From contig OZ025787.1 in assembly GCA_964019425.1 (NCBI GenBank), forward strand, positions 1,488,001 to 1,552,000: DNA of 64,000 bases, read 5' to 3'. Below, in pieces: positions 10,527 to 62,822 of this stretch (position 1 is the first letter of the stretch; the number at the start of each line of letters is the position of its first letter). The notes below the pieces were generated by a model. The model ran no database searches. It saw nothing but the letters and a program-made list of their open reading frames with translations, and was not told the origin of the DNA. The translations under genes were made by a program, and so were the position numbers. This DNA comes from Flectonema sp. DT1601. Its lineage: Eukaryota.

Positions 10527-12954
10527 ATGTCGGACTTGGAAGGCCACAGTGTGGTCTCTTATAAGTCAAGATTCTTCGTTTTCGGAGGGAAGAATAGTCG
10601 AGAAGAGTACGTCAACGATGTGTGGATGGTGACAGTCACTGCAAGTGATACGATGATGTGGGAAAAGGCGGAGGTCAGTGGAGAACCCCCAAAGCCTTGT
10701 GCTTACCACGGTTGTGCGCTGTGGAGGGACAGGTACATGATAATAATTGGAGGTGTTTCAAACGACGTGGAATATGAAAGGGGAAGAGTCTTCGTTCTTG
10801 ATTTAGAAGAAATGATGTGGAGGGACAGAAATGCGGTGGGTGACGTCCCCAGCCCACGATGCCACCACACTATCACAATATCGCCTGGCCAAGATCGTTT
10901 ATATTTATTCGGTGGATATCCAGTCGGAGCAGAGGGAGAGACAATGTTTTCATCAGGGGCGATACAACATCAGCACCGCTCATTCTTTGAGATGTATGAA
11001 TTGAATTTAATGGGAGCGGAATTAATATGGAAAGCTTGTCCTTGTCTGGAAGAGTTCCCTCCAACCCTTTGGGGACACACAGCTACTATTTATTCAAGTA
11101 ATTTAATCATTCTTGGTGGCGTTGATGTAATAGATAATAAGGAAACGCCTCTTGCTTGTGTCTGGCACTGTGACAAGGCTCAGTGGCGATGGGTTGAATT
11201 TAACGTGGTACCACATGCTAGGGCACTTCACACTGCAGCTTCTTACAAGGGTCGGATTTTTGTGTTCGGTGGGTTTGGGCTTTCTAACACAACGAAATTT
11301 AACGATACCTGGGCATTTTCAAAGGAATCCGGTCAGTGGTTGGAAGTATCAACGATGGGAAATCTGCCTTCTCCTAGATCTGGACATGCTTCTGCAATTG
11401 TTGGTGATTATATGTACGTATTTGGTGGGGTTGATGCTCACCATCGCAGGACACACGAGGTGTTTTCATTGCATCTTCCTACTGCTACATGGTCTCATAT
11501 AAGTAGTTCTGTTAAGGGTACGTTTGGTCACCCATCAGTACCTGCTTTATTAGATGATGGGACTTTAGACCCGAATGAGATAACAGGTATCAACAGGGCT
11601 GCCGCACTTCTGGATAGGGCAGCTGCACAGGCGAACCTTTATGAGGCTCTGAAAAAACAACATTTTGAGCCGAGTGTGATCCCAATAGCTGTTGACAATG
11701 TAGTTCATGATCAGAATATATCTCCTACGCGGTTGTCGGTACACGCTCCTACTCCAGGTAGGGTCAGGGCACTGTCGTCTTTTCAGGAGAGAGTTCCCGA
11801 GAATGTGGAGCACGTTGTCCCATTTTCGAATGAAAATCTGCAGGGAGATCCGAGAAACGTAAGTCCACGCAGAGGAGATCGTCCTCCTCCACCGCCTCCC
11901 TTACCTCAAATGCAGCTGTCTTCGTTTAGTCAAGTGACGCAGGCGACTCAGGTGGAAAATTCAGAACCAGCACCGCCTCCACCTCTGCGTAACAGAGATA
12001 ATATATTAAAGAATGAAGCTGCTGATATTATTCAAAAGCAGCGGTTGGAAATTGACCAACTGAGAGCTCAGTTAGAACACCGCGACAAGGAAACTCGAGA
12101 AGCAGACAACATACTTATACCATATCATTCAGCTCCTCCTGCTCCCAGGGTGTCGCTTACTAAAGAAACGATATCTGATTTAATGCCTCGTGTTAACCTT
12201 AGCCTTATTGATACTCCAGTTCTTAACCTCCCTCCACCTTCAAGTGAACCTAACCACGGCCTTCTTAGTAAGGCTGCTACTAGGGATGCTATTGCACGAA
12301 TTAATAGTGACTTGACGAAATCTGTTGGTGCTTCTCCTTTAATGTTTCCTAACTTGTTGTCTACCGCACCTACCGATTCCACCAGACATACAACTCAGCG
12401 TCGTGATTTGGGATTATCGGGACAAGCTTCAAGTGCACTTCCGGAAGCAGGTCCGCATACATCTCCGAAGAGAAACCAACCAGGAGTTGTAGACATAGTT
12501 CATTATGGTATGTATTTATAAATTAGGGAAAAAGAAAAAAGTGTGTTAGTTGACATCAGTCGTGTCCTTCCTATTGAGATCTCTCAGTAGAAGATAGGAA
12601 TGATTGAAGACAATATTCAAATAAACAAAAACAGATCCTTTGAAGATATTCGCAGCTAGAGATCAACCTGCTCAGACTCCAATTCCTTTGAGTGGAGGAG
12701 GAGGAGGAGGATACATGCCATCATACCATCCTTCTATGTACAAACCTCCTGCTTCATATGAAGAACTTATGACTCGTGCGAATGGTCCTCCACCACCTCC
12801 AGCAGCTAACAGAGTATTGCCACCAACTAACTCTGAGTTCAATGTAGTGCAACAACCTCCGATACATAAATCTCCTTCTCTCGCTAAAATCTTAAGAGGT
12901 GAGGCATCAATGTTGTCAATTACTCATGTAAATGGTCCGGCTGTTGCACCATGA
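10527..12954 (+). CDS. Kelch-repeat beta-propeller protein with Pro-rich/coiled-coil tail; join(10527..12507,12635..12954), 766 aa
   Basis: Repeated FVFGG/LFGG/ILGG and PSPRSGH/PSPRCHH Kelch motifs. A GT-AG intron joins ORFs 10527 and 12640 in frame (HYD-PLKIF). Confidence 0.9.
12508..12634 (+). other. cis-intron, 127 nt
   Basis: GTATGT...AAATAAACAAAAACAG; restores the frame. Confidence 0.85.
12556..12613 (+). ncRNA. Candidate intronic single-hairpin AGA-box (H/ACA-like) guide RNA
   Basis: Lower stem TCAGTCGT/ATGATTGA, internal loop, upper stem CTATTGAG-ATCT-CTCAGTAG, then AGA immediately after the stem. G-U pairs favour the + strand. Confidence 0.5.
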
Positions 12955-13297
12955 ACATCGTCTTTCCTTTATTAGACTTGTTTTTGTATTTCAGTTTTAG
13001 CTGAATGAGTTCGCAGCCTTCTTGTGCTCTTTCTTTGAGTAAATTATTTCTTCTTAACTCTACTGCAGTTCAGCAAGAAGAAAATAAACAAAAAAAAAAA
13101 AAAAATCGAACCGAATTTTCAGCTAAAAAAGGTATTAATTTTTTAGTTATGTTAAAAAAAATACCTTAGCGAAACGTGTAGAATAGAAAAAGAAAAAAAG
13201 AATTATTACATAGACACATATAGATTTAATGAATGGAATTAACAGTTTGTGTGTGTGCTGGATATTTAATTTTTATGATCAAAAGTAAAACAACAAT

Positions 13298-13891
13298 ATG
13301 CTAAAAAGAGCTGCGTTCACTCGGGTACAACGTCGAATGTGTAGCGGGAAAATGGGATGGGCATACCGTGTAATGAGATTACATTATTATAAACCTTCTT
13401 TTGTAGAAGTAAATTCAACTGAAGGATTAATAGATTTAACGAAACATGAAAGTAATAAGAAATTAGTTGTTGTTATACATCACTCATCTGACATGTTAGA
13501 AATAAAGGGAAATGTAGCATCAGCAGCTGAAGAAAGAATACTTTCAGAATTCAATAACAGAGTTGTGTATGCATTCTCTAATGTGAGTCACGATACAACA
13601 CTGCCATGCAGTCCTGTAATTGACATATATGCGAAAGGGAAATTAGTTCAACGAACTCTTGGTTGCTCTCTCAGCCCCCTTCTCTGTGTTCCACATCTCA
13701 CATTAAAACACAAATTTGAAGGTTCCTACGATGCTGAAGAGATTGTTCCAAGCGAACTCTATTTCGGGATTCCGAGGAGTATGTACAGTAGGCTGTTTAA
13801 GAAGCTTCAAAATGTACCAGACAATAAAGCTAACGATGTGATTAATAGAGCACGAGAAGAAGTCGTAAAGTATAAACTAAATAAAGCATGA
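13298..13891 (+). CDS. Hypothetical protein, possible mitochondrial presequence and degenerate thioredoxin-like fold (no CxxC)
   Basis: Arg-rich, acid-free N-terminus MLKRAAFTRVQRRMCS. PVIDIYAKGKLVQRTLG resembles the thioredoxin C-terminal strands. Confidence 0.65.
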   Translation: MLKRAAFTRVQRRMCSGKMGWAYRVMRLHYYKPSFVEVNSTEGLIDLTKHESNKKLVVVIHHSSDMLEIKGNVASAAEERILSEFNNRVVYAFSNVSHDTTLPCSPVIDIYAKGKLVQRTLGCSLSPLLCVPHLTLKHKFEGSYDAEEIVPSELYFGIPRSMYSRLFKKLQNVPDNKANDVINRAREEVVKYKLNKA

Positions 13892-14040
13892 AGAGATGCA
13901 GAAGCACGCAGTTGATTGAAAGCATTGCGTATTTAGTAATCGGGTGTAAGAAGTTTAGTTCTCTTTTTATTAAAATTATTTATCACTTCCCCCACTAATC
14001 AGTTTTCTTTTTAATCACTCAAAAAAAAAAAATATTTTAA

Positions 14041-15870: not shown

Positions 15871-16032
15871 ATGGATCCTGCTTTGTATCAACAACAGTTG
15901 GCGAATTACCAACAACAGCTCTATGGAATGTTTGCGGGGGGTTCTGCTGCTGGAAGCACAGGGAATGCTTGGCAGCAACAACAACAGCAGCAACAACCGC
16001 AACAGGGAAATTTAGCGAGTATGCTGCAACAG

Positions 16033-16063
<31 letters not shown>

Positions 16064-19000
16064 AGAACTACGGTCAGGGTTACCAAACATCACCACTACA
16101 ACAGTTGTTGGCAACCCAATTAGCAAACCAACAGACTGGAGGAACAGCTTCCAGTTACCAAGCAGCTCCTCAGCAGCCCTACCGTTCTCTTCTCTCTGGA
16201 GGAGTGGCAACTTCACCTGCAAACCCAACTACTACAGCGCCCACTACTGATTATAGTAATTCGTCATATGAAAATACTCGTTCTGCTGATCAATTCGGAG
16301 GTCAGAAAACCTCGATGCTCGCTGGGGGAACTTCTTATGAAACACCCGCAAGCACCTTACTAACATATGGCACAAGTAATGAAGATTCTCGGGTAAGCCA
16401 ACAGACACCAGCATTAACATCTATTGCAGAGGGTACTAAACAGCAACAAGATCAACAGCAGCAGCCAGCAATAGTACCAAAGGAAGAACAATCATATCGG
16501 ACTGGATATCAACAATACGCTGCTAAGCAAAAGGCGTTACCAAAACTATCGGAAGATAGCAAAGGCGATGTCGCACCCGTCAGGGGATCTCCCACACGCC
16601 AGGAAGTGCAACAAAATCAGCGTCAGGAACCATATCGATACCAACAACAGTTCAGACAACCAAAACAGGAATGGGAGAACTGGGGTAATGATGAAAGTTG
16701 GAACGAATGGGAGAACTGGGGTGACAAATGGAACAACAAATCATATTCAAACGATGTCGGAGTTGATATTAAGGAATTTGATTTCGATGAGATTCAGGAG
16801 GAACACGCGAAAGAGCAGCAGATGCGGAGGGATATCACCGCTGTGCCAGTGCCGGCAAAGCCACCGACAATTGAAGTTGGAAGGAAACTTCCACCACGAC
16901 CTACTAACCAGTCAGCTCCGTTACCTACAGCTAAGAAGTCTCCGCCCACACGTCCAACATCTATTCCTCCGCCTCCTGTGAAACCGGCGGCTCCGGCAAC
17001 AAAGTCATCTCAACCTCCACCCGCTGACGTTCTGACAAAAATGCCAATTTCGGTGGCAGCTGCGAAGACACCAGTTGTACCACCGCCACCAACAGTTCCT
17101 TCAACGTCTGATGCTCAACCCGCTGTTGCGGAGAATCCGTACGCAAGCTTCGGTTCAGATCCCAAGGATCAGCCTTCTATGCAGCAGGTGAAGCACCCAG
17201 GAATGTTACCCCCTCAGCCAACTGGTACAACGCCTCAGCCAACTGGTAAAAAGAAGAAGAAGAAGAAGAAAGCTAAGGCTACGGCAGGGCAATTACCACC
17301 TCCTCCACAACTTCCGGCATCACAGTTTCCGTTGGCATCGCAGTTTCCACCGCCAGTTCAACTTCCTCAGGTAGCACAATTCCCACAACCACACCAAACA
17401 GCAATTCAATCATTTCAAGCTGGTTACAGATCGAAGCAAGCCCCTCATGGATATAAAGAATCGAACTTCATAATAACCAGGACGCCTGGTCAGAAACTTG
17501 GTATGGACTTCGACGGTACGACAGTTAAGAAAACCTGGCCTCACCTCGATGCGTACAAATGCGGTATCCGACCTGGTATGATTGTTGCATGTATTGGTGG
17601 GAGGGATGTGTGGTCAGCTGAAGAAGTTAAAAAAGAATTTACAAACTCAGTTTCAAAAAGGATTCGTGTGATAGTTTACGAGAAGAAACCTGCCAGTGTT
17701 GTTGATCCTGAGAAGAAGTACATCTGGTTGTATAATATACCAAAGTCTTATGGAGTTAATGATACTCGTACTATGGTTGAAAAGTTTGGTCCAGTACAAG
17801 AATTATGGAAATACGACACTGCATATATTGTTGAGTTCGCTACCAGATCTGGGGTCGCACAGGCGCTTACCCTTCTTGAAGATATTGGAACGTTACCAGG
17901 TGGTGATAGAGCTGTTACTATTGAGTACAAGGCAGCTCCAAAGAAAGTTCCTCTAAAATCCCTTGAGATCGACACAACAGGCAGCCCAACAAAGCAAAAA
18001 CGAAGTAATTCGCAGCAGACTCCTGAAGTAAGTAAAAGACCCAAAGCAGAACCACCTGCAGAGGAATTCAAACCTGCGGCAGTAGCTAATCCATATTCCA
18101 CCACTAGCGAGCAACCTGCTGAACCAGAAATTCCTGAAAACATCACTGCTTGGATTGATAGAGGATGTAGAGACCCTACCTCTGCTGCTCAGTTCTATGC
18201 TAATGCCCGTGCTAACCTCCGTGAAGCTGTATTTTTACACGGAATTCATCCAAAAAACACTTCAAACTCTGGAACCTGCAGCACTCTATTGTATCCACTG
18301 CCGTTTTATTTTATTCCGGAGTTGGTTAATGATTTGATTCTATTTAGTGCTCAGGCATCCGGCTTGTCTGTTCCAAAAATGGTTCAAATCCGAGTCTACA
18401 AAGGTAAGAAACCTATTAATGGGTACGAATACAGTATTGCAGAAGTTCAAACAGAACAAGCTAGAGAAGCTGCTCAGATTGTTGGGTGCTTAGATGGTTT
18501 TGGAACGTTATTACCCGGACTCGAACTGGACGAATCTAACCCAGGTATTTCAGCAGTTTTAGGAAATGATAGCAATCATGAAGAAGTTGAAAAAGGGAAA
18601 GAGACTGTAAACCTAACACCTCGCATGATGTCGTATCAGTCACCTATTCCAGTTGATTATATAAAGCCTTGCAGGTATCACTGTGTTATGGGACATTGCT
18701 TTAATGAGAATTGTAGTTACAATCACTTTAGAAAGGGAGACACTAGAATATCTAAGAAACTAGTAAAGATTACTGGAATACCTCCAATATGGAGACCTAA
18801 ACAGGTACAAGAACTGTTAGAACAGAAGTGGGGTCATAAGAAGTCCAGCGTTGTTTGGATCGATATTCTAAAAGAACAAAACTCAGGATTCGTAGCTATC
18901 ATACAATGTTGGAAGGCCTCAGCAGCTAAAGATCTGATGGTCACTTTTAACGGTAGTGGGAATCATGGAGCAACACAATTCATTGCAACTGAGTTCCACG

Positions 19001-20226
19001 GAACAGCAAAGCCTGTAGCAAAACCTGCTGAAGAACCACTTATCATGCCACTACCACTCCCACCTTTACAACAACAGTTAGTTGACCAAATGACTGAGCA
19101 GCGTCTGAATAAATCAAGACCAAGGCATATTATTCTACCCAGCCGCGCCGCTGCTGTGACAGCAAAATCCAACGATATCGTCTTGAGTGCTATTCGAAAA
19201 GCTGCCAACAAGGAAACAGAATCATTACGGCAGCAGGTTGAATCACTCACAAAAGCCAACAGTGAGCTTTGGAAAACTTCCTTGGGGCTCGTTGCTGTGG
19301 CTACGGGTGGTCAAATTGGACAGTCTGTTGCGCAGACTATTCCAATGCAGACTCCGCAAGTTAGTTATCCTCACGCATCTGTCCAGCAACAGCCACGTAC
19401 CGTTCCTTCAAAGACGCCTGTCAACCCCCACGTCTCTCGTGCTCAACAAAAGGCTCACGCTGTACCTCGACCGAGTGTGTTAGAGAAGCGTGTCGCTGAG
19501 TCAATCTCTCCTGCCAAGAAGATTCAGAAGCGAGCTCCGGTGACCCTGTTGTCAGGTAAGCAGGAAAATGAGGAAATGCGTTTCCTACACAAGGAGATCT
19601 TAGAAACTCGCTCAAAGATAGAGAAGTACAAATCCGTACTTGAAATCAGACCAAGTAGAACTGTTGAAAGTAAAGTCTTAGAACTCAGAGCTCAGTTATA
19701 TCAAGCAGAAGAAAAGTATCAGAAGCTAGTTGACAGGCTGCCGAAAGCACTTGAGATCTCATCCGGAAGGAGGAGGGAAATTCCTTCCAGACAATCAGCA
19801 ATTGTTGTACATGATGATAGTGATTACAACCCTGCACCACTAGTATGTTGTTATTTACTTTGAAGATAATCTGTGTTAATGAAAAATAATAAATAAAAAA
19901 TAGGCTGATCCAATTCCGGTTGCTGCAGCAGTTTCTGTCAAGCGTGTAAGTCTACCAAAAGCTAGAGAGATACCAAAGGTATGGTTTTGAGAATCTCTGA
20001 ACCTTTTTTATTTAATTAACCAACAAACAACAACACCGAACAGGATGACAACGATGACTACAGTCCTGACGCATACGTTCCTGAACCATTAGGAGATGAG
20101 GGTGATAAAGATAATGACGACAATTACACTCCTGTAGCAGCTGCTGATATTGAAGATGAAGACGATTATCGACCAGGTGCTATTTTTAATGAAGAACTAC
20201 GAGGACGTCCACGCAGACGTCGGTAG
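15871..20226 (+). CDS. Q/P-rich protein with PDZ-like, RRM-like and CCCH domains; join(15871..19842,19904..19978,20044..20226), 1409 aa
   Basis: PDZ-like RTPGQKLGMDF...AYKCGIRPGMIVACIGG; RRM-like YIWLYNIPKSY...VEKFGPV; CCCH CRYHCVMGHCFNENCSYNH. Two phase-0 introns extend the frame to TAG at 20224. Confidence 0.8.
19843..19903 (+). other. cis-intron, 61 nt
   Basis: GTATGT...AATAATAAATAAAAAATAG; phase 0. Confidence 0.8.
19979..20043 (+). other. cis-intron, 65 nt
   Basis: GTATGG...AACCAACAAACAACAACACCGAACAG; phase 0. Confidence 0.8.
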
Positions 20227-20572
20227 GAACACCTCATCAACACAACGACAGTAGTCGTTGAGGAATACCCTCAGATGACTACATCAATAAGTAATAATTA
20301 GTACTACTCATTTTGTATCAATTACAAGAAGTAAATATTAGTGTGACCTTCGAACAATAGTTGCTTGCTAAGTGTCATTCAACATGTCAGCATGCGCATC
20401 CACAGCGACGCGGACCGATGTGTTTGTTTGATACTCAACGTTTCCAGCAAAGATGGTTTTTTTTATGTTAAACCGAATGACGTTAAGCAAATCAGTTAAA
20501 TTGTAAAGTGTTCTGATAATTATTTTTATTTTATTATTTCTTCTCATAGAATACCTGTCCTGTATTACCTAA

Positions 20573-25200: not shown

Positions 25201-26237
25201 CCCCATAGTAGTTGTATCGCTCTCCTACTAGAATCCTCTGCAAATAAAAAAGCAAGACTTGGCTTTATTTATTTGGATTTTATTTTGTGAATAAAAAAAA
25301 TTTGCTTAATTTTCTGATAATTATTTAGCAATTATTTTTTGTTTTGTTTTTTTTCGCTCTTTTTTTCTGGGGATTTGTTTGAAACCCAACTGACCTACTA
25401 AAGCTGTTTGGAAAGACAAACGAGCGAGTGAGGGAAAAAAAAAAAAAAAAAAAACAGCTCCTCTTCTTAGTTTCATTTCATTTCATTTCATTTCCTTTTT
25501 TTTTTCTTTTTTTTGTCACAGTATTTTCATTATTTATTTTATTTTTTTTCACCCTCCGCTGTTCTTCCCTCACTCAATTAAACTATTCATCGTATTCTTG
25601 ATAATGAATGAGAGAGTCTTTTGAAATGTGTTTACTGTTTACATTGTCAAAACGTTGTCTCTACTTCTGTTTTATAAAAAGGAATACGAGTCACGTAAAT
25701 AGCATATATTGACTTACCCTTTTCGCTGATTAGTGTTTTGAGGTTTCGCAAGAAGCTGTTCAAACCAAATTCAACTTGCTGTACTGGACTTCCCCTCCTA
25801 TTTTCTTTTTCTTATCTTTTGCCAAAGAAATCATCAATTCAAAAAAAAAAAAGATTGTACTAATTTGCTGTATAATGAAAAAGGACGAAGAAAGTAGTTT
25901 CCATTTTATCTTACCGAAAAAAAAAAAAAAAAAAAAGAGATTTCTTAACATCGTAATCAATGTACTTAGTAGCTCTTTTTTCAAAAAGTCCCAAATACTG
26001 AGTTCATTTTATATTTCTGCTTCATTCCTAAGGGTTTGATGGACAGCGGCTTCCATACGGCTGCCACATTTACAATTAGATAGTTGACTGTTGGATTCTT
26101 TGTATAAACCTGTTGGCTTTTTCTTTGAGCCGTTGTGTTTTTAGTAGGCAAGCACTTCATTTCAAATAATTTTGCTTTTTTTTTCTTTTTTACAATTTTC
26201 CCCCGTTCGGATTGTTGGTGTTCGATTCCCTCTGAAA

Positions 26238-26270
<33 letters not shown>

Positions 26271-32200: not shown

Positions 32201-33699
32201 CTGCTTTGATGGAAGGCAACTGTATCTTGTGAATGCACAGTTGAGCAACGGGCAAGCAGAAAAACGAAAAAAAAAAAAAAAAAAAAAAAACTGATTCTCT
32301 ATTCAATTCTTTTGTCCATGTGTTGCCACAGGGTTTTTACACTGTAGTGGTATTTTATGAGCGTTGAGTGTTCACTGGTTCAGACTTTACATTACAATTA
32401 TCAAAAGAGATGCTTCTGATTCTCGGAGGTTTGGCGCGGCATATTAGCATGTGTTTAGTCCTTGAATATTATTTTATTTTTGTCTTTTCACCTACTCACC
32501 AGCTTGCTTGTTGTAATACGAAAGTCGACCAACGTGCCTTCAAGATAGTTATCTCTTTTTTATTGAAGTTTTTTTTTATTAATTTTTTTTATTGTTACTT
32601 CTACTTGGTAGTCACCCTTACAGACCTTAGTTGTAAGCGCGAATCGTTTGCTTCATCAACTTTGTACGGGAAGGCTGTTTAATATTCAGTAATGCACTAC
32701 TTCCCTTTTTTTAGTATAGCAGGAGAGGAGGAGGGGAGGAAAGTTGTTCGTATTTCCTATCTTCTACTGACGTACATTATTCTTTCACCTCTTTACAAAG
32801 GAGAGACTTACGGAACAGAATTCGCGGGCAAAACGTCCCTAAACAATAGGATTTAAAAAAAAAAACCCCAGGGAGGAAAATAATAAGGAAAAAACCAAAA
32901 CAACTACTTCGATCTATTTTCTTTTATTCGTCTGTTCCAGCATCTGCTTTTTAGAAGTTGCAACGCTACGAATGTGAATGAAGATATGGAAAGTAATATG
33001 AACCATTAGGCATTAAAGCAACAAAAAGAAAATATGAAAGAAGCCAAACGGTTTGTCTACACAACTCTAGGGCATGCGCTTAATAAGCCAGCCGAGGTCA
33101 TCTTGTTTTTTCTTCTGCCAATTTAACAAACTCATTACTCGATTTTTGAACATATTAATTCAAACTGGTAGAATGATACCAACTAGTAACAACAAATCAG
33201 AAGAATCCAACAAAAAAAGCAAAACAAAAAAAAAAAAAAAAAAAGAGAGAAAAGAAACAAACAAAATACAACAGACAGAACAAAAGGAGCGAAAAGAATT
33301 AATTCTTTCTTTGTAACCAAATAAGAATTAAAAAAAAAAAAACTAAAAACGGGGAAGGAAAACATAAGAAAGAAAAGAGGAAAAAAAAAAAAAAAAAAGA
33401 AAAGTTAAATTAAATTAATAAGAGAGTTTGTTGCTTCAAACCAATGTCCCTCTTGAGTCAAGAAAAAAGAAAAAAAAAAAAACATGAAAGTTCAATACCG
33501 TGAAAGAAATCTCTCCTCACTCACATATCTCGCACTGCGCCATTTGTCTCTTACTGGGTTGCGTATTGGTATCCGGGCAGTTTATATTTTATTTTTTTAA
33601 TACAGAAATCGAACTTTCTTTGTCATTAACAATCTGTGATGTGGGAAATGGGAAATCTAGTCCTCTATTAATCTTCTTCACTCATCACAGGTACCTGAC

Positions 33700-41449: not shown

Positions 41450-41637
41450 ATGTCAACGAAGAGATTGAAGGAGACCACCAGAGTTGTGACTTATTTAATT
41501 ATTTGAGTTCGTTCGTTCGAATATTTATCGAAATAGTTTTTATCGAACAGGTTGAAGATGGAAAATTACTTTTTGTGTAGAGTTATACTTTGAACAAGTA
41601 AAAATCTTAATATATTACCAGCATCACAACACAACAA

Positions 41638-47420: not shown

Positions 47421-47488
47421 GACTAACCAATCAGAAAAGTATTTCTGTTTTTTTTAATAGCTAGTGGCCGAGAGAGTAACGTCACTCT

Positions 47489-47567: not shown

Positions 47568-47852
47568 TTCAGTTGGTTGATTAGTAACAATTGCGCACCT
47601 CCTACATTGGGGGTGATTACGTCTGTTTTTTTTTAATAAGTTGAAAGAAGAACAAAAAAGAAATGAAGTTTTCTGGTAAGGCAATCATCCGTTTTTTTTG
47701 AATTCGGAAAGCAAAAGAGATCACTTTTGAGAGTGCGAAATGTTTTATTATTTATTCTTAATTCTTTTATACAACACACAGAACAAGATACCATGAGGGT
47801 GTAGTCAACAAGTTACTAGTAACCGTAAAAGAAGACTTTTATTCACAGTCAC

Positions 47853-50800
47853 ATGTCATCTGATGAAGGAGACAGTTCTGTATCAGACAGCACTCTGCTA
47901 TCAATAATTCGATATGTCGGGATACCTGTAAGAGATTCGAGTGGTGCCATAACTGGAGTCGACTACAACAGAAAAGACAGCTACATTGCTCTTCATGAAC
48001 TCGGTAAACTCCTTCAAGAAGAAGAATCTCGAATTCGTTCATATGAAAAAGAAGAAAGCAGAATTGAAGAACCTCGTTCTGTATTCGTACGAGTCTCAAG
48101 TTGGAGAATTCCCACTAAAATATTAATTCCGTTATTCTTATTTCTAGACTTGTCTGAAACTACATTACTTGGTCGAATTATTTACATATTTATCGCTTTG
48201 TTGATTCCTCCTCCTAAACACACTGCGAGTATGGCTTTGAATCACAAACTTATATCAGAGACGAGAATGTTGTTTTCATCTTTTGGAATTCAAAATAAAT
48301 TACGGCAGCTACTCGTTCATATTCTAAAGAATAGAAACAGCAGACGACTAAATGGAGATGAGGTCAGAGTGCTAACAGGTTTCTTAGAGCTGGTGGTGTC
48401 TTTAATACGTCTCCCTGATGGTCGTCTTCCAACTGGTGCTCCGAGTAGGACTACTGATGAGATTGTTTCAACCATGTCTGAGGTTCGTATCCTTGAACTG
48501 CTTCCTCAGATTATTCAACAAAATGACTTTTATCTGAACGGTTCTGCAGACACTCATCCGTCATTCACACAATCGCAGAGGCTTCCTCTACCTTCTGAGA
48601 CCATTCCTGTTCCTGTTTCTAATGAACCTAATCTAGTCAATGATAGTGTTGGTTACACACAACTAAACCCTCAAGACACTCAATTAGAAATATTACCAGA
48701 GACTTTAATATCTCAAATAGAAGATGTTGATGAGGTACAGAAACTGATGTTGGCGCCAACTTTTCGACTCAACCAACAAGACCAGGATGCTCAGATTGAG
48801 GAGACACAACTGACGATGATGGACACGCAGCTGCCGAATATTCTGAGCGACAGTCTTCCTGAAACTCAGCAACCGATTGAGAAATCCACAACCGAAGAGA
48901 TCGAAACAGAAGACAGCAACTCTGAAGAAGAAGACGAAGAAGAAGAGGAGAGCAACTCCAACGACGATGAAGTCCATAGAAAGCGAAAAGGAGGGAAAGA
49001 AATTATTTCAAACGAACTCAAACGCGCAAAGCTCACTGAAGCCGCCGCAGAGCGCATCCTGGAAGGTTTGTATTATTTAGTACGGTTGTTGAATACTTAA
49101 ATCAGTCTAATAATAATAATAATAATAATAATACTACAGGAATGAACCCTGACCTCGATGATGAGGAAGCTGCACAACTTGAAAAGATTCAAAAGTCAGG
49201 TCCTGCTGAAGTTGAAGACGACATCGAATATTGGAATCAACTGGTGATTGAAATTATTAATTACCTCTACCGCAGACAGGATATGTCAATGCTTACTTCA
49301 GCATCACGAGAGACAGTAAATCAGACTTGTAGTCACACTCTCTCACAGGCACTCACTGATAGTTTAAATAGTGAAAAGAGAACTCGAGCAATGCAGCATC
49401 CAAAACTAAACGGAACTTTAGGAAAACAGGGATTCTTTACCAGAAATAATAAAATTGTGAGAGCTGAAGTACTCACCAGAGGAGGTATCGTTGATGCTCG
49501 AGAACGAGTTACAAGAAATCGATTACATCGCGAAGAAGACACATCGAAATATACAATTCGTGTGCAGGGGATTCTAGGAAGATTCTTAAGTGGTTTCTTA
49601 GACGCTGCTGGGATGGTTCTCATCCAGCACAGTATTCCAAAAGTATTAAATAAGATTCACAGACAAGATGACTTTGAGAACTCATACTCGGATGAGCAGA
49701 TTGATTTTTCAATAAAATTCTATTCATTCACTCGAATCCTACTCAGCTATTGCAGAGCAACAGCCGTGGCTACCAATTCTTTAATTGATTTGAGTGAGGT
49801 TTCTAGTCTTCTTCAAGAAGAGGTCTTCTTTAGAGCTTTCGATCTCTCCCTTTCAATGATTCAACAAGAAGTTCCTTCTACTGGTGAAGGAAGTGTACCA
49901 ACACGTGATGTTATTAATCAAAAGAAACAATCGCATCATGTGTGCATCTCTTTTTTAAAAGAATGTTTTGTTATTTTATCATCACTGCTGGAGACATACA
50001 AACCGAAGAAACCTTCTGATGTTCCCGACGCTCGTTTCACTGCAACTAAAGCTCTCGCTGCTTCTGTTCTTCATCGACGGGACAACATTCAAATGATAAT
50101 TAGATTTCTTAAAGAACATGAAGTGTTTAAATATCCTTACAGTTATAGAAATGATTTAATTCAATTATCTCACGTTGTGTTGGTGTCTTTGGGGTTCATA
50201 TCTCGAGGGGGGAAGATTTATGTTCAAAAGAAGTCGAGGAAAAAGAAGAAGAAAACAAAACGCAAATCCAACAACAAGGAACAGCCTGCAGACGATGAAT
50301 CGATGCCTAGCATTCACTCTGATGTTGATCACTCAGAGGCGAGTAGTTCTGTTTACAGTGAGTGGACTGTTGAGGAGGAAATAGGTGTCTATAATGAACA
50401 GAAGTCAAACAGACAAGCATCCAGAGCATTCCACGCGGAATGGAATCGCGCAAATAGGTACGAAATTCACTCAGTCAGAGATACGGATGTCTTTACTGAG
50501 AACTTACTTCTCAAAGAGAAACCTGGTCTGGCAATGCTTTACCAGGCAGCACCAATTAAATATAACGACTCGCCTTCACAGGAATCTGATACTTCAGAGA
50601 ACCCTTCTAATTCAATAGACTTGTTGTACTATTCTACTTTAAATGTTGGAGAGATCTGTCCTAAACATGTTCTCAAAGATATTAAGAAAGCTACTCGTGG
50701 AGAAGACAACGACGACTCTGATGCTTCCAATCCAGCTAATCGTTTTCTTGAACAAGACGCTCAGTCAACTGATGACAGTAGTGATTCGATAGCGACTGTT

Positions 50801-52188
50801 TATGAAGACAGAGAAATAGATTTAAAAGGAATCCTTTATGAGTTCGTACAGCCGAGAGTATTACAAACATACATCGATTGTCTTAAGGAATGGAAAATTA
50901 ATTCTGAAGAGACTAACGGTTGTATTTGTCATTTCCTAATGCGAGTAGCTTTCGAACTCAAACTCTCACCCTGCGTGTTGTCAGTCGAATGTCTCGCAGT
51001 TTACGAAGAGATATTACAATCAATTCAAGTGATGTCTGCTGATGAATCTCTTCGTCACTTAGTTCATAAGAAATATCAATTACTTAAAGAAACGTGTGAG
51101 AAGTTAGTAAGGAAATGGATCTTCTTATTTAAGAAACATGACTACTGGGGAGTACTATCTCTTGGTTGGGTTACGAGGTACGAGGCGGATATCATCCAAG
51201 ATGGGTCGCTGTTTTCTGAAGAAGTCCAACGAGTTCAGCAGCCTGAAGAGGGCGAACAATCTTTCCATTTTGACAACCTTTCTGGTGATGAAATGTTAGG
51301 AGAAGCCGCTCACTTCGACACGGATGTTGACCCAGAGATACGAGCTCGAGCTGCTGCCTGGCGTGCGAAACGTTGGGGACCAGAAGATGACATTCGTCTG
51401 AAACAAGTTTGGGAACAGTTCCTTGAGAATCACGGTGATGGTTTCGTAGGTGACATCAAATCAAAAGTTTTTAAAGAAAAGGTTTGTCCCCCTCCAGTAG
51501 TTATAATTATTGTAATTATCCCAAACACTAATCAAACACAAACAGACTTTTAGTGCGAAAGCAATTCTCGAAAAAGCAATATCACTCGGATTGGTGGTCC
51601 CTTCAGATGTTGCTGCCCTTCCAGCACCAAAGGTTTGTATTCTTTTCTTTTATTAATAAGATTCACTTGATGTTTACTTGCTAACAACAATACGAACAGG
51701 CGAAGTGGACAAAAGATCTCGAAGAAAGCCTGCGAGACAACTTTGGCGTATACTCTACTGGCCATCCACAAGGAGATGACTGTCTCGTTAGACTACGAGA
51801 GGACTTGTTTCCAATGTTTGCGGAAGATCAAATCTTACGAAAAGCGAAAGCACTCGGAATTGAAGAAGCAACAGCCATTCAGGAGGCGAGAAAGAAAGCA
51901 ACCGCCACTCGCGCAGCAGCAGCACGTCGGAAGAAGCGCGAAGATGATCTCGAACTCACTCGACTCCTTGAAGAGGAAGACCAGCGGGAAGGAGATGACG
52001 AAAACGAAGTAGTCCCATCTCGCAAGAGTAAGAAGTCTAAGAAGGAGAAGAAAAATAAAAAAGAAAAGAAGTCGAAGAAGGAAAAGAAGGAGAAAAAAAG
52101 CAAACGCGAGAAAGAGAAGCGGGAAGCATCCCCTTCACCCACTTTGGAAGAAGAACCAAAGAAGCGATCTCGCGTTGAAGACGAGTAG
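47853..52188 (+). CDS. TIMELESS: Timeless/Tof1 replication-fork protection protein; join(47853..49065,49140..51481,51546..51632,51700..52188), 1376 aa
   Basis: N-terminal ...SSWRIPTKILIPLF; YRNDLIQLSHVVL; FVQPRVLQTYIDCLKEWKINSEETNGCICHFLMRVA; C-terminal W-led helical repeats. Three GT-AG introns restore one frame. Confidence 0.8.
49066..49139 (+). other. cis-intron, 74 nt, containing a (TAA)n microsatellite
   Basis: GTTTGT...(TAA)n TACTACAG. Confidence 0.85.
51482..51545 (+). other. cis-intron, 64 nt
   Basis: GTTTGT...ACTAATCAAACACAAACAG. Confidence 0.8.
51633..51699 (+). other. cis-intron, 67 nt
   Basis: GTTTGT...GCTAACAACAATACGAACAG. Confidence 0.8.
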
Positions 52189-52516
52189 GAAGCTTTTTGT
52201 TGATTGCGAACATCATTTTGTAGTGGCTGTTGCTACTTATTGTTTTCATTCATTTTGTCATTTGGGCGGAAGTCGTTTTTACGAATGTAGATTATTTCAG
52301 AACCTCTTTGAGGGTTTTATTTTTGTAACTTCCTTAGCGAACTGTAGCAGTTTACCACTTCTGTTTGAGGGGTGCGACATCATTACGAATGGTTAATCTT
52401 ATTATTACTTCTCACAGATGATAATTTATGATTCCTTTGATGAAAGTTAATTAGTTTGTTGTGATCTTTCTTTGATTTGATTTCATAAACAACTTCAACA
52501 GAATGACCTCAACAAC

Positions 52517-53659
52517 ATGGCATCTTTTGATGGTAAGGTTCTAATACTGACTGCGATATTAATTTATTGCATCGGAACGATGGGCATATGGACCGGCAAG
52601 CGCAGCACCTGTTCTGGAAGAGGCAGAATAAACGGAAAGGGAAATTGCGACTGCCAGGAGCGTTTCGTAGGTACTACTTGTGGGTTATGTCAATTCGGAA
52701 GATATGGTGGAGGATGTTATTTTGGCTCTCCTGTAAAGGGAAGACTAGTAGAGAAGATCCACGCTGTTATCATCGTCGCTCCCCAAACACCAGATTATGA
52801 AAGAACGCGACTACAGGAGTTGTCATCAGAACTGCAGAACCATTTATATGTTTCATCGTGTTCTGTTATTCAGTATCCTCAGTCAAAAAATATTCAATCC
52901 CGAGAATCGAACCCAGACGAAGACATACTCGGCTCCGCTAACTATGTTATCGTAGCAGACTACTCAGATGGGATTGCTTCTCTGTTAGAACGACACAAAC
53001 AGAACCTCCCTGACGTTGTAGTAATCACTTGGATATTATCGAACGCTGTCAATTTAGAGTTGTGGAAGGAATTACGTCCCAACGCACACACTTCTCCTTC
53101 TGAAGGATTACTTAAGAACATCGGAGGTGGGAAGTTAGAACCAGTTCGTGTGATTCCCGAACCAGCACTCGAATGTAAAGCGAAAGGTTCTTCAGAGAAA
53201 GATAACATTTCTATTCAACATGATTTCGATGTTGATGTGAAAACAGTTGGAGATGAGATGTCAGGATTTGGAAGAGTTCGTTATGAAGGCAGCGGGTGGG
53301 GTGTTAACAATCAGATTCACGTTCCCGATCTTCGGACTTCATTTTCAACAACTCAACTCGTTTTCCTCCCGCAATCCTTCTCCGACGTCGTTCCAGTTAC
53401 CGCGTTTGATGCCGCCAGTTGCGGAGCTCTTTACATTCCACTTCCTGCAGAGCCACATGCTCCACTTCGTCATCTGGTGCCGACAGCTATCTTCCCTGAG
53501 AACCTCCTCGACCTTCGTATTCAAATACAATCACTTTTACAACATCCTAATCGAATTATTGCAATTACTGAAGAGTTTGCGACCTCTACGAATATCGCAA
53601 ATACTTTAAAGGAAGTTACTTCCCAGCTAGTGAATACCTACGAAGTGTTACTTCCATAG
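52517..53659 (+). CDS. Type II membrane protein with an EGF-like module and a glycosyltransferase-like C-terminal domain
   Basis: N-terminal TM; CSGRG...CDCQERFVGTTCGLCQFGRYGGGC; YEGSGW and FDAASCGALYI resemble GT-B (CgeB-like) motifs. Confidence 0.65.
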   Translation: MASFDGKVLILTAILIYCIGTMGIWTGKRSTCSGRGRINGKGNCDCQERFVGTTCGLCQFGRYGGGCYFGSPVKGRLVEKIHAVIIVAPQTPDYERTRLQELSSELQNHLYVSSCSVIQYPQSKNIQSRESNPDEDILGSANYVIVADYSDGIASLLERHKQNLPDVVVITWILSNAVNLELWKELRPNAHTSPSEGLLKNIGGGKLEPVRVIPEPALECKAKGSSEKDNISIQHDFDVDVKTVGDEMSGFGRVRYEGSGWGVNNQIHVPDLRTSFSTTQLVFLPQSFSDVVPVTAFDAASCGALYIPLPAEPHAPLRHLVPTAIFPENLLDLRIQIQSLLQHPNRIIAITEEFATSTNIANTLKEVTSQLVNTYEVLLP

Positions 53660-53954
53660 GATTGTTGTCTAAAGCAGGCAGTTCAATTACACGGAGGTGG
53701 ACAATATATCGACCGACAGCATGCTAACTAGTCGGGTGGAATGGGCGATCAGTTTACTGATCTTTCTAACATTATTTGATACTTTGAAACTATCCCTTAC
53801 GATAACGATTCAACTGTTCACAGAGGAGGGTGTCCACAGTTTCTTTGTGGTACTTGTTTTATTCCTTTTATTTATTTTTTTTTGACTGGGAAAAAAAAAA
53901 TAATTATAATTTTTTTTCATCAAAACAAGGGGACTTTTTTAATTTTCTTTTTAA

Positions 53955-54440
53955 ATGACGAAAAGAGTTCAAATAAGTGACGTGGTCGACATAAAAGACG
54001 AACAACGAGAGGAAGAGGAAGCGAGAAAGAAGCGAATAGCAGCTGATAAGGAAATGGAGAATAAGTTTTGGAAACAAACTTTTAATAAAAATAGAACATT
54101 TTTAGGAACTGAAAGAAAGACGTACAGCGTGTTGATGTTTATTTGTATCATCACATACCTCGTAGCCTGGAGTATAGAATACTTTGCTAAGGAACTAATT
54201 TCTAATATACTTGCAGACCCTACTTGTATGAACCAATCAGACTATATTGGAACTCCACGTGCTAAACTATTAGAGGCTGCCTGTACACATCGCTACCGCG
54301 ACATGTTAGTAGCCGACGAGATTATCGACCACTGCGTCGGTGCTAAAAACGCCTGTCTTTGGGTCGGAGTTATTGCGATGGTTTTCGCCTACGCGCCGTC
54401 GCGAAAGCAAAAGCAGTCACCGAAAGCACATGCTGACTAA
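53955..54440 (+). CDS. Hypothetical two-TM protein, 161 aa
   Basis: Hydrophobic segments YSVLMFICIITYLVAWSI and ACLWVGVIAMVFAYA flank a Cys-containing loop. Confidence 0.75.
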   Translation: MTKRVQISDVVDIKDEQREEEEARKKRIAADKEMENKFWKQTFNKNRTFLGTERKTYSVLMFICIITYLVAWSIEYFAKELISNILADPTCMNQSDYIGTPRAKLLEAACTHRYRDMLVADEIIDHCVGAKNACLWVGVIAMVFAYAPSRKQKQSPKAHAD

Positions 54441-54479
54441 AACATAATCCCTGTTATCCTTAATTAAATTAATCATTGT

Positions 54480-54579
54480 GTTCACTCGCCGTTACTGGGA
54501 GACTCGCTGTTGCTTTCTTTTCCTGTGCTGAGTGATATGCTTAAGTTCAGCACGTAGATCTTCATCTGCTGAGGTCGGT
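54480..54579 (-). rRNA. Isolated fragment of the 5' end of eukaryotic LSU rRNA (not a full rDNA unit)
   Basis: Minus strand ACCGACCTCAG...TACGTGCTGAACTTAAGCATATCACTCAGCACAGGAAAAGAAAGCAACAGCGAGTCTCCCAGTAACGGCGAGTGAAC matches the conserved LSU 5' motifs GACCTCAG, GCTGAACTTAAGCATATCA, AGGAAAAGAAA and AGTAACGGCGAGTGAA. Confidence 0.9.
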
Positions 54580-54891
54580 AAGAAGTAAGTCGCAGTCACA
54601 TTGGCTGCCGTCAGACGAGTCGACCACGTGGTCGCTCAAAGATCTGAGGACCCGAACCTTAAAACTTTTCCTTAACTAATATAAAGTAATCATTATATTA
54701 TCTACTTGTGTTCTGATCCCGACAATCAACTTCACCGGTCGAGTTGCTTCCTTGAAGTTGTGTTAACAGAAATAGTTACAAACGGAAGGTCCTATTTGAT
54801 ATGTTAGGAACCTGTTGTGGTATTACTCTCTTAGGTCTTCTGTGGTGGTTGTTAATATTTCATTTCTTATCATTAGTTGAACATCAACAAT

Positions 54892-57130
54892 ATGGAGATG
54901 CCAGAAACTCTGACGGGTCTTTGCAACAAAGATGCCTACTCAGTTATGCCTCCACAGCCTCTCGGTGATTATTTGACAGCGATTGTTGAAACGCTAAAAG
55001 ACTTCGACACGAAGATCACACGCGCTGAAGAGTCGCAAGCAAAGATCAATGGTCTGGAGAAGACAGTTGCTGAACTGGAAACCGAACTGCGCGCACAAGA
55101 CGCCGATCGAAGAATTAGTGCTTTAGAACATGACCTGGCAAGACCTGGTCCTTCCTTTAGACAAAGTAATCCTGTTTCTATTAAGCTTGGAGTGAATCTC
55201 TCGCGATTCATTTCTTTGGGTGGTCAGGATAACTTCAAGTCAGGAGTAGCAAATATTGTCGGACTTCAAAAGTCAGATATCCAAGTACTCTCTCGACCTC
55301 TTGAAGACTCTGGTAGCACTACAATTAACTTTCGTATCTCATTTATGGGACCTAACAGAGAGCACGCTGAGAACCTCGCCAAGTCAATTAGTGGGAAGTC
55401 TGGATCGGTTGCAGGTATTGTGTTTTATTTTATTTTTAAAAACCTACTGTCCTGCGAAGGTCATTAAAACAACCAACGCAGGGATGGAAATTGAAGAAGT
55501 CACTCGACCAGAACCAAATCTGATTGGAGTTGGAGAGCCGCGTGTTGGTCTCTATCGCCACGGAGTTGGTAAGACAGTAGCCGTTATGTTAAATACAATG
55601 TCAACAGCCCTTGGTCGTTTAGCAGATGCGGAGTTTTGGATCCTCAACGCGCGTCACTACTTCAGAAAGTTGCGAAAATATAAAAAGAAACGTTACTCAC
55701 TACCTGCTGTTGAGGCATTCTTAACAACCAGCAAACAGATTCTCGGTGTTATTTATTGGCGCAAACTTGCTCGATATCCCGCATCGAGTAAAGCTCAGCA
55801 GAAGAAAAACAGAGCTCTCAAATACCTTCTAACGGCAACAGACAACGGTGCACGAAAGGCAGCTCTCGACAAAGCACTGCGGTGGTTGGCTTCAAAGCAA
55901 GCTGCTGACAAACGATCAACAGCTCAGAGAAGATCTATTGAATATCTGATGGCTAAGAGTGACACGAGGATTAGGAAATATATTTTTGGAAAACTGTTCC
56001 GTTTTATGGAACTCCGTCGGTCGATTAAAAGAAAAGGAGGAATTGCAGACAACCTTTTGATATTAACAAATAGAGGAATGCGAAAGTTTTGTTTTGGTAC
56101 TTTGCGCGCCTTTGCTGCCAAACGAAAAGCCCGCCGAGGGCTTGTGGACTCCCTGGCAGTTCTCAACAAGGGAGCACTCAGATCGAAGTACCTCCGAAAG
56201 CTGCGACTATTCGCAAAAGGAAGACGCAATAGAAGACGTCAGCACTCTGCTGTGTCTGCTCTTGGACTCCTTTCTGATAACACCACGAGAAAGAGATACT
56301 TTGAAGAGCTTTCTAACTTCGTACGGGCCCGCCGCAAGCTCGCCGAAAATCGCAAAAAGAATCATCTGAAGGCAAAGATTGCCGACCAGCTCAGCGGGAA
56401 AACCGCAAAGAAATGCGCCAGGCGATGCTACGAGAAGCTGAAGAATTACTCAAGGCTAAAGAATAAGGTGTGCAAGTAGTCCTTCTTATTGTTTTGATCT
56501 ACTTGTGATGTCATTATAATCTAACTATAAATAAAACAGGCGAAGGATAAAAAGATGATGGAAAAGATAATGAACTACTTAGACCAAGACAGTCAGTACG
56601 ATGATATGGTAAAGCGATGCGACACTTTGGGAACTCAAGTAGACGTCGGTTTGAAGACTTTGACGAATACGAACAGCGTTCTAAATAAACTCGTCGACAG
56701 ATTGATATCTGTAGACGAACAATTAGATCATTTGGATAAAGATAAAGTCTCTCGAAAGGAGATCGGGTCTGCGAGAATGGGACCGTCACAAGCTCCTTCA
56801 CGAGCAGCATCACCAACTCCAGCACTTGATAGACGAGATGTGTCACCTCCTCGCAGACACTTAGCTGGTCCCTCACCAATAACACCGATGCACATTCCGT
56901 CATCTGCAGTAGTTCCTCCTTCTAGTACTGCAGCCTCTGCTCCTCGCGATAAGGAAGCTGAGCAGATGCTCCTCCTTCAGAAAGAAAGAGCAAAACTCAA
57001 AGAAATGGAACGCTACAGTTCGAGTCCAAACGACTTCAACCTGCCATCAGCTGAGGACACTTTGTCCAGAGCTAGACAGTGGCAGAAGGACCGACAGTTT
57101 GCGAAGTCAGACTGGTCAGGTGGCAGGTAG
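54892..57130 (+). CDS. Coiled-coil protein with basic helical repeats; join(54892..55414,55482..56467,56540..57130), 699 aa
   Basis: Three track ORFs join in one frame through two GT-AG introns. The middle exon has ~30-aa K/R-rich repeats (e.g. IYWRKLARY, YIFGKLFRF, YLRKLRLF). Confidence 0.75.
55415..55481 (+). other. cis-intron, 67 nt
   Basis: GTATTG...TAAAACAACCAACGCAG. Confidence 0.75.
56468..56539 (+). other. cis-intron, 72 nt
   Basis: GTGTGC...CTAACTATAAATAAAACAG. Confidence 0.8.
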
Positions 57131-57516
57131 GATGACATCACTCAACCTGAGCGTCCTATTCAAAAATAGAAGATGTTCAGCCTTCTTCTTTATTTCTACT
57201 TTTCTGACGTAACGGATCTGGTACCTTAATATTAGTTTAGACCACTAGAGAGATGATCTACACCTGAGAGTAATATGAATCTAATCATCGTCTTCTTCAT
57301 AATTTGTTTCGATTATTTCATTTAGAGTGAAGTCGGGTTTTCAACATTTTGTATGCTGTGACTGACCCGATTCCCCTCTTTAAAATAACCTTCCCATCCC
57401 GTGTCCTGCCCTGCCACTGTATTTATTGTATTCGTGTAGAACATTAGATGAATTAGAAATGATGAGGTGGTTTCTGATTGTAAATATTATTTCACATCTT
57501 TCACAGTCACAATGAG

Positions 57517-61218: not shown

Positions 61219-61621
61219 CCGTTCCTGTGATGTAATGTGTTGAGGGTAGAATACGTCTTTGGTACGCTATTTAGTACTCATTGGCTCCTCTTAGTGAGAG
61301 TATTTATTAGTTTATTATATTTCTGTTATGTTATTTCATTAGTATCTGTGTTGTTTTTTAATTCTTCTTCCTTAACTGAGGAATGAATGAACAGCCGCAG
61401 GACGCAGTTGTCAATAAATATTTCTGAAAGAAATAATTACTTCGTAAGTTAGATCTGAATAGAGTTCTTCCGTTGGTGTTGTTATCGAAGTTGATTCGAA
61501 TTCAGAAAACATTTTAACAACAGGAACATCAACTGAGATGATAGAGAAGAAGAATTGTAGTACTCTGATGTTGTTGTGATCATTTTCATTCCCCCCTCAG
61601 AAATTCTAAAAAAGATAAAAT

Positions 61622-62822
61622 ATGTTGAGCGTCTTCGAGAGTAAGCAAACCAGAACCCCAGTGTGGGCCATGAGACAGGCTGGTAGATATCTTCCTGAGT
61701 ACATGGCGTACACGAAGGGTACCAACTTCTTTGACAACTGTCAGACTCCAGACCGTGCTTGTGAAATTACATTACAACCGAGAAGACTCGATATCGACGC
61801 AGCGATCCTGTTTTCTGACATTTTGATCATCCCTCAGGCGCTGGGTATGATCGTCCGCATGGATCCTGGAAAGGGACCGCAGTTCGATGCCCCTCTAACT
61901 AAGATCAGTGACATCACTCCAGTGACAAGACCGATTCAAAAGAAACTTCCTGACTTGGACATCAAAAAGTCATTCGAACTTACTTGGGATCCAAAGAACC
62001 AGGTCGGACCAAAGCTTGTTGAAAGTCTTTCCTACACCAGGAAGGCAATCAAATTGATTCGCGAGAAGTTAAACAACGAAATCCCTCTAATCGGATTCAC
62101 AGGAGCTCCATGGACACTCATGTGCTACATGATTGAAGGTGTTAGTAAAGCGTCGTATGCTGGTGTAAGAAGATGGTTCTATGAGTGCCCACAGGAAGCT
62201 AAGAACCTTTTAGGGTTGGTAACAAATGCTTGTATTTCGTTACTTATGATGCAGATCGAATCAGGTGCTCAGATGATTCAATTATTCGAATCACACGGTG
62301 GAGAGATAACCCCAGAGTGCTACGCTGACTTTGAGCTTCCATGTCTCAGACTTATCGCTGAGACTTTGAAGAAGCATCACCCGACTGTTCCAGTTATTCT
62401 CTTTGGTAGAAACCTTCGTCTTGAGACACTCGAGTTGACGATGTCGAGCACTGCTTTTGATGCTTACTCATTCGATTGCAATACCGATATGACTGCTGCT
62501 TGTGAATTAGCTAAGAAGTACAATAAAGTAGTTCAGGGTAACTTTGATCCTTGTATTCTATTCTCACCAATTAGTGAGATCAAAGAAAAGACAACCGCCA
62601 TGCTCACAAAGGTTGCTGACGTGATGGGAGTCAATGAACATGGGATTCCAAACCACTACATTGCAAACCTCGGGTGTGTTATTTATTATTTCTTATTGGT
62701 AGTGCATCTTAAGAACTAAAATAAAATAAAATAAAATAAACAGTTGGGGAATGCTTCCATCCCACAAGCCTGATGCCCTTCAGGCATTTATTGACAGCGT
62801 CCACGCATTCAAGAGAAAATGA
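61622..62822 (+). CDS. hemE: Uroporphyrinogen decarboxylase; join(61622..62673,62744..62822), 376 aa
   Basis: PVWAMRQAGRYLPEY, AAILFSDILIIP, PLIGFTGAPWTLMCYMIEG, VQGNFDP. The spliced C-terminus reads YIANLGWGMLPSHKP. Confidence 0.95.
62674..62743 (+). other. cis-intron, 70 nt
   Basis: GTGTGT...(TAAAA)n TAAACAG; restores the UROD C-terminal motif. Confidence 0.9.

Follow-up and report, generated by a model that had tools for sequence, protein, structure and literature searches.

Nine short introns in a 64-kb stretch of diplonemid nuclear DNA (Flectonema sp. DT1601, contig OZ025787.1, positions 1,488,001 to 1,552,000 of the forward strand; hereafter the window) end in sequence that is rich in A and poor in T. 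The AG dinucleotides nearest to the start codons of the window's genes, which are predicted acceptors for spliced leader (SL) trans-splicing, are instead preceded by sequence that retains T. This compositional split holds under an objective rule for choosing the start-proximal AGs, and most of the contrast stems from the cis-intron side. A sequence-only reading of the same DNA had described two opposite acceptor grammars, and had proposed that tract composition serves as a code that keeps cis acceptors hidden from trans-splicing. The split between the grammars persists (p = 6e-5 for A content), but the two classes overlap, and the coding exons give the proposed code little support. On balance, we lean toward the view that the introns are defined across their own short length, and that trans acceptors, which have no donor, need U beside the AG.

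All nine introns are GT-AG segments of 61 to 127 nucleotides (nt), eight ending in CAG and one in TAG, and their removal yields open frames of 766, 1409, 1376, 699 and 376 amino acids (aa). The 13 motifs quoted in the sequence-only reading each occur once, on the + strand, and its observation that these introns restore frame and end in A/AC-rich tracts is borne out. A outnumbers every other base in the tract region of all nine, at a fraction of 0.45-0.80 across positions -23 to -4, which are the last 20 nt before the YAG (Y = C or T). The introns, with the fraction of A in this region, are as follows.

12508..12634, + strand: intron of 127 nt in the kelch-repeat gene 10527-12954; frame restored (766 aa), without homologue support; A 0.70
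19843..19903, + strand: intron 1 (61 nt) of gene 15871-20226; frame restored, GTATG donor, without homologue support; A 0.80
19979..20043, + strand: intron 2 (65 nt) of gene 15871-20226; frame restored, without homologue support; pyrimidine tract at -42 to -35; A 0.60
49066..49139, + strand: intron 1 (74 nt) of the Timeless-like gene 47853-52188; (AAT)n spacer; sole frame-restoring donor within 200 nt; A 0.60
51482..51545, + strand: Timeless intron 2 (64 nt); CTAA with branch-like A at -15; junction gap-free against P0145 and P0147; A 0.65
51633..51699, + strand: Timeless intron 3 (67 nt); branch-like A at -16; junction gap-free against P0145 and P0147; A 0.45
55415..55481, + strand: intron 1 (67 nt) of gene 54892-57130; junction gap-free against the F. 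neradi transcript-derived protein P0136; A 0.45
56468..56539, + strand: intron 2 (72 nt) of gene 54892-57130; branch-like A at -16; junction gap-free against P0136; A 0.60
62674..62743, + strand: intron (70 nt) of the uroporphyrinogen decarboxylase (HemE) gene 61622-62822; (AAAAT)n spacer; A 0.80

Homologues support six of these nine introns, five through gap-free junctions (three of them against transcript-derived proteins) and one through a bridged alignment. The spliced HemE model is identical to the Flectonema neradi protein P0121 at 331 of 376 residues, its junction is gap-free against all eight diplonemid proteins tested, and none of five other nearby AGs tried as acceptor yields the conserved protein end. 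For gene 54892, 578 of 699 residues are identical to P0136. A word-based homologue search with Timeless returned only the query itself; relatives were recovered by an HMMER search. Those that support introns 2 and 3 (P0145 and P0147) are unnamed proteins, and intron 1, which lies where conservation is low, is bridged by P0145 and by P0146, each of which matches both flanking exons, without an exact junction. The kelch intron and both introns of gene 15871-20226 have as their only basis a restored frame and a GTATG donor.

The protein collection used for comparison stores 61622-62719 and 47853-51553 as unspliced open reading frames (ORFs), for example as a 365-aa HemE that enters the intron, and P0004 and P0146 likewise read into an intron. 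P0004, which is a genomic ORF in one cluster with a transcript protein of R. humris, departs from HemE at the same codon as the window intron, and P0146 departs from the Timeless sequence at the position of intron 2. The HemE intron and Timeless intron 2 probably occupy old diplonemid intron positions. The ends of all nine segments (GT...AG, with YAG) and the restoration of the protein upon removal, judged from sequence comparison, agree with U2-type introns, and we read all nine as ordinary short introns of the GT-AG class in a diplonemid resembling Flectonema.

From 5' to 3', the layout of the introns consists of a donor, a U-rich 5' part, a YTAA motif 15-30 nt from the end, an A/C spacer, and YAG. 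The exon base before the donor is G in eight of nine introns, which begin with GTATG (three), GTTTG (three), GTGTG (two) or GTATT (one), such that seven conform to G/GTDTG (D = A, T or G; the slash marks the exon boundary). The fraction of T is 0.50 at +7 to +26 and 0.18 at the 3' end, and that of A is 0.27 and 0.63, respectively. This polarity runs in the same direction in all nine introns (p = 0.004) and therefore does not reflect a uniform mutation bias. YTAA occurs 11-36 nt upstream of the end in eight introns (shuffle mean 5.0, p = 0.035), which upholds, on motif grounds, the earlier remark that (C/T)TAA often precedes the tract. YTRAY is present in six (p = 0.026 versus shuffles), and CTAA in five (shuffle mean 1.95, p = 0.027), whereas none of the 20 start-proximal sites contains CTAA (shuffle mean 3.2). 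The branch-like A is at -15, -15, -16, -16, -25, -25, -25 and -30, and is absent from the kelch intron. The A/C run is thus the spacer between the YTAA motif and the YAG; it occupies the last 10-25 bases, is poor in U and G, and in several introns resembles a microsatellite.

The sequence-only reading had held that the introns have no polypyrimidine tract. This is correct near the AG, where none of the nine has a strict tract (six or more pyrimidines with three T) in -25 to -4, as an animal-style tract between branch and AG would require. Farther upstream the statement fails, since five of nine introns carry strict tracts, all at -35 to -70, including 12 nt at -60 to -49 in Timeless intron 3. 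A tract between donor and branch, which is the fungal-type layout, is present in five introns by the strict rule and in eight by the definition of Kupfer.

For comparison, one AG was taken for each of 20 start codons, the closest upstream, without regard to composition, and 1396 other intergenic AGs served as background. The start-proximal AGs are predicted SL acceptors, assigned by position and sequence, and most of the start codons were picked by the analyst. Six of them are given here.

7878..7900, + strand: start-proximal CAG, predicted SL acceptor; C+T 0.75; ambiguous, with a donor-like site at 7734
10494..10516, + strand: start-proximal CAG, predicted SL acceptor; C+T 0.80
20527..20549, + strand: start-proximal TAG, predicted SL acceptor; C+T 0.80
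33668..33690, + strand: start-proximal CAG, predicted SL acceptor; C+T 0.75
41599..41621, + strand: start-proximal CAG of chorismate synthase; A 0.50, C+T 0.50, a case of overlap between classes; the start matches F. neradi P0126
52479..52501, + strand: start-proximal CAG; A 0.45, near the cis type; followed by an out-of-frame ATG

The nine introns average A 0.63, C 0.15, G 0.04 and T 0.18, the 20 start-proximal AGs A 0.33, C 0.20, G 0.04 and T 0.43, and the background A 0.31, G 0.18 and T 0.34. The first two classes differ at p = 6e-5 for A and p = 2.5e-5 for C+T, and a nearest-YAG rule gives p = 7e-5 and p = 4e-4, respectively. A content separates them with an area under the curve (AUC) of 0.97. 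The dinucleotide TT in -15 to -4, a feature picked after inspection, occurs in none of the nine introns and in 18 of 20 start-proximal AGs (Fisher p = 5e-6); for 300 intergenic ATGs, the AG above carries it in 63% of cases.

Start-proximal AGs share with introns a G-poor, AG-free zone but retain T. They look like selected acceptors because G is at 0.04 versus 0.18 in the background (p = 2e-9); CAG is found at 10 of 20 versus 26% of the background (p = 0.018), and the base at -3 is not G in 17 of 20. Their pyrimidine excess is modest (C+T 0.63 versus 0.52, p = 0.005). The assertion that AGs before start codons are mostly T/C-rich therefore survives in part: C+T reaches 0.60 in 12 of 20, but only nine have a strict tract in -25 to -4, and four, including the chorismate synthase site, have A at 0.45-0.50. 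The four examples offered with that assertion are from the top of the range, and the lead example, the AG at 7900, is the ambiguous one. Two start-proximal AGs are followed by an out-of-frame ATG, and the 5' untranslated regions (UTRs) predicted from the nearest AG measure only 0-38 nt. In Diplonema papillatum the 5' UTR is about 70 nt (PMC10161547).

The mechanism we favor would begin at the donor. U1 on a nearby donor, aided by the U-rich stretch at the 5' end, and SF1/U2 on the branch motif might together bridge an intron of 60-130 nt. With the intron bridged in this manner, tract binding by U2AF65 could be relaxed and the spacer could have settled on A and C, which would leave it unable to pair, so that the AG would be reached across an unstructured linker. 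A predicted trans acceptor, by comparison, would have to recruit U2AF by itself. The A/U split would make mistaken SL addition at intron AGs rarer, whether incidentally or because selection played some part, and the main switch would be donor proximity. A low dependence of cis introns on a reader of U tracts is a fair inference. The last 10 nt before the 20 start codons are A/C-rich as well (A 0.46, C 0.23, G 0.08), and therefore fit a general spacer composition.

Several considerations count against this proposal. The sample of nine introns from one 64-kb window is small, and the classes overlap: T minus A in -15 to -4 ranges from -9 to -3 in introns and from -5 to +7 at start-proximal AGs. 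Branch points were guessed from motifs whose statistics are weak, and no such motif is present in intron 12508. In the kelch gene and gene 15871, alternative donors restore the frame too. The roles assigned to U1, SF1 and U2AF come from general knowledge of the spliceosome.

An alternative that we regard as unlikely is a dedicated code in which composition is the main switch, with the A/C tract either read positively, by a specialized factor or by a diverged paralogue of U2AF/SF1, or actively blocking the SL machinery. The near separation of the two classes by A content and by TT is what such a code would produce. It also finds support in a survey of diplonemid introns (Thakur et al. 2025; PMC12621601), where CA-rich intron motifs recur, the tract favors C or A in six of six species, and diplonemid introns remain mostly unspliced in Trypanosoma brucei reporters. 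More precisely, in the part of that survey available to us the tract favors C in five diplonemids and A in D. japonicum, with a weak A signal in L. lanifica and R. humris; YTRAY is found in only 2-16% of introns, and the authors favor a flexible spliceosome. D. japonicum, however, retains U2AF1/2 while having the same A-rich tract, and the five others prefer C. Along with the U-rich 5' part kept by the window introns, this weakens the earlier suggestion of a U2AF65-independent or specialized route for cis introns.

The coding exons argue in the same direction. Across 19 genes (34,482 nt of coding sequence), compared with 300 synonymous shuffles and with longer context ignored, T-rich, G-poor AG contexts fall slightly below expectation at all seven thresholds but reach p < 0.05 at only one. 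Because 30-188 such contexts persist in coding exons, depending on threshold, a 20-nt composition is insufficient to make a trans site, and local composition alone therefore does not decide trans-splicing. The start-proximal sites with A at 0.45-0.50 likewise speak against composition as the switch. A broader form of the idea is tentative, and we would sooner doubt it than adopt it: diplonemids might exclude U from the branch-to-AG spacer, using A in AT-rich genomes (the window organism and D. japonicum) and C in others, and reserve U beside the AG for SL trans-splicing.

It is also quite unlikely that the A/C tract is a neutral spacer, that is, an unstructured AG-free linker grown partly by slippage, with the upstream donor alone deciding between cis and trans and the tract offering no protection. 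The (AAT)n, (AAAAT)n and (AAC)n repeats of the spacers do recur elsewhere in the window, and the predicted 5' UTRs are similarly A/C-rich. Moreover, a G/GT-type consensus donor is absent from the 30-200 nt upstream of 17 of 20 start-proximal AGs, the three exceptions having donors at 7734, 13132 and 54820. A neutral linker does not explain the loss of T: this base avoids AG just as well and is more common than any other in noncoding DNA, but intron ends are depleted of it (0.18 versus 0.34 in the background, p = 0.003). Strong donors in noncoding DNA, moreover, are at most mildly depleted (9 versus 14.6 +/- 4.0 in shuffles). Noncoding DNA of the window also holds seven A-rich, TT-free YAGs, none of them with a G/GT donor 45-135 nt upstream.

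We consider it very unlikely that the contrast is an artefact of how the sites were selected, with introns noticed through their A-rich ends and some start-proximal AGs being unused or serving as acceptors of 5'-UTR introns. The hand-picked start codons and the donor-like sites above three of the 20 start-proximal AGs leave room for this explanation, as do 25 low-GC in-frame GT..YAG candidates within coding sequence. None of the 25, however, has the G before GT that marks the exon end at eight of nine introns. Comparison along the whole length with transcript-derived proteins shows no evident hidden intron in HemE (376 versus 377 aa), chorismate synthase (373 versus 373) or gene 54892 (699 versus 701), and all three introns of these genes are A-rich.

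The donor-like site in question lies 167 nt above the AG at 7900.

7731..7739, + strand: donor-like site, identical to three Timeless donors

This 9-mer occurs once in 28,489 noncoding nt on the + strand (shuffle mean 0.3), and 7734-7900 may be a 5'-UTR intron with a pyrimidine-rich acceptor, or the match may be due to chance. A second site of interest is a consensus donor, G/GTATG, in noncoding DNA at 63310-63318, about 320 nt above the start at 63639. The YAGs 102-132 nt downstream from it are not A-rich, and a 5'-UTR intron or a missed first exon is possible there.

Pairing of the U-rich 5' part with the A-rich 3' part, which would join the splice sites as in the noncanonical introns of euglenozoans, is barely credible: predicted folds link both ends in several introns and z is at or below -2 in two of nine, but seven are no more stable than shuffles, the eight short introns fold with weak energies (-3.5 to -8.8 kcal/mol), and of the two stable folds one is an internal hairpin. 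Unlike the noncanonical type, all nine introns have GT-AG ends. Folding was also set aside as the cause of intron polarity, given that only two of nine introns reach z <= -2. The internal hairpin is that of the kelch intron (12551-12614; minimum free energy -24.1, z -2.55), and it would shorten the longest intron to about the length of the other eight.

Parts of this arrangement are known from other organisms. D. japonicum has the A-rich intron tract, with a median intron length of 41 nt compared with 61-127 nt in the window; Flectonema is absent from the main text of that paper, which in the portion available to us has no occurrence of "spliced leader", no analysis of trans-splice acceptors and hence no cis/trans contrast (PMC12621601). 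In Schistosoma mansoni, sites of SL addition differ from cis acceptors in their longer pyrimidine tracts and in a higher uridine content near the AG (PMC5832876). That difference is a graded one among the intron acceptors of an animal, whereas in the window A is set against U in a protist with unidirectional gene clusters. In short introns of Fusarium, 83% of pyrimidine tracts lie between the donor and a CTRAY-type branch, followed by YAG (PMC5677156, citing Kupfer et al. 2004); unlike in the window, an A-rich spacer is not reported in the text we have of that source. The introns of Giardia, Trichomonas and Spironucleus resemble those of the window in having a CTAAC-type branch, an A/C-rich run and YAG with no tract between, but their spacing is fixed and their motif strongly conserved (PMC6679479). 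The window introns lack this fused branch-3' splice site, since their branch-like A varies from -15 to -30 and the motif is degenerate.

Among kinetoplastids, AG after pyrimidine-rich sequence is the only conserved trans-splicing signal of T. brucei, with G avoided at -3 (PMC2936537). In both respects the start-proximal AGs of the window show a partial resemblance, but their tract is weak and interrupted by A. Only three intron-containing genes are described in kinetoplastids, and these introns have pyrimidine tracts without a fixed position (PMC11613528). Two components of our finding have therefore been published, namely A-rich intron ends in the presence of U2AF1/2 (D. japonicum) and U-richer trans acceptors (Schistosoma). 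A literature search found no report of cis versus trans acceptor composition in a diplonemid, although the supplements of PMC10161547 and PMC12621601 may contain it. We regard the cis/trans split as plausible and so far unreported; it draws on nine introns and 20 predicted sites. We know of no SL trans-splicing in fungi that would compete for the AG.

The assignment of the window to a diplonemid close to F. neradi is based on its proteins. All 20 protein-coding genes modelled are on the + strand, and Pfam matches among their products include START, kelch, CSL zinc finger, CotH, chorismate synthase, RNase PH, Timeless and URO-D. The nearest relatives of the window HemE are labelled as diplonemid proteins, and HemE and chorismate synthase each fall into a 90% cluster with F. 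neradi transcriptome proteins. A tree of this one gene (13 rows) groups the window with F. neradi with support of 100/100 but does not resolve the branching among diplonemid genera. Judging by the residues identical in HemE and in gene 54892, the window organism is a relative of F. neradi rather than F. neradi itself. For 18 further ORFs of the window, cluster look-ups brought up no named member (15 were singletons and three lay outside the collection). A search of sequencing runs with window 47800-57200 listed no RNA data set containing it, a result that says nothing about expression. A metagenome scan with the HemE alignment, covering 1 of 64 parts, returned at least 80 loci of 33-41% identity; measured against the 56-65% identity among diplonemid HemE proteins, no second diplonemid locus is among the matches listed. 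In D. papillatum, genes form one-strand clusters and the SL is added to essentially all mRNAs (PMC10161547), and by analogy the same would apply to the window organism.

Several other features of the window deserve mention. A tRNA-Arg(TCT) gene at 9742-9815 is on the - strand, opposite to the protein genes, and no small nuclear RNA match was found within the window. At 54473-54577 on the - strand lies a match of about 95 nt to the 5' end of eukaryotic large subunit rRNA (Rfam RF02543); this isolated rDNA fragment is intergenic and antisense to both flanking genes. Two long T-rich stretches within the one-strand gene cluster (1-7919 and 22238-33699) have no convincing ORF; candidates for them are long UTRs, long introns and noncoding transcripts that lack annotation. 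An intronless gene at 38390-41449, directly 5' of chorismate synthase, encodes a 1019-aa protein with a CotH-kinase domain and a right-handed beta-helix.

Diplonemids combine SL trans-splicing of essentially every mRNA from one-strand clusters with many cis introns, whereas kinetoplastids keep these apart. How one spliceosome avoids SL addition at intron AGs is a point left untreated in the portions of the diplonemid literature consulted for comparison, including the survey by Thakur et al. (2025), which does not take up SL acceptors. There is also a practical consequence for gene prediction, in that intron-bearing genes are stored in the protein collection as unspliced, truncated ORFs. The compositional split offers a concrete candidate answer to the question of SL addition and, if true, gives a reason for the A and C tracts reported in 2025. 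Should the exclusion of U from the spacer prove general among diplonemids, cis acceptors would be recognized either without U2AF65 binding to the tract or by a factor that reads A/C, and tract composition would be the switch by which a genome with many introns can be transcribed polycistronically and still keep its own genes from being cut.

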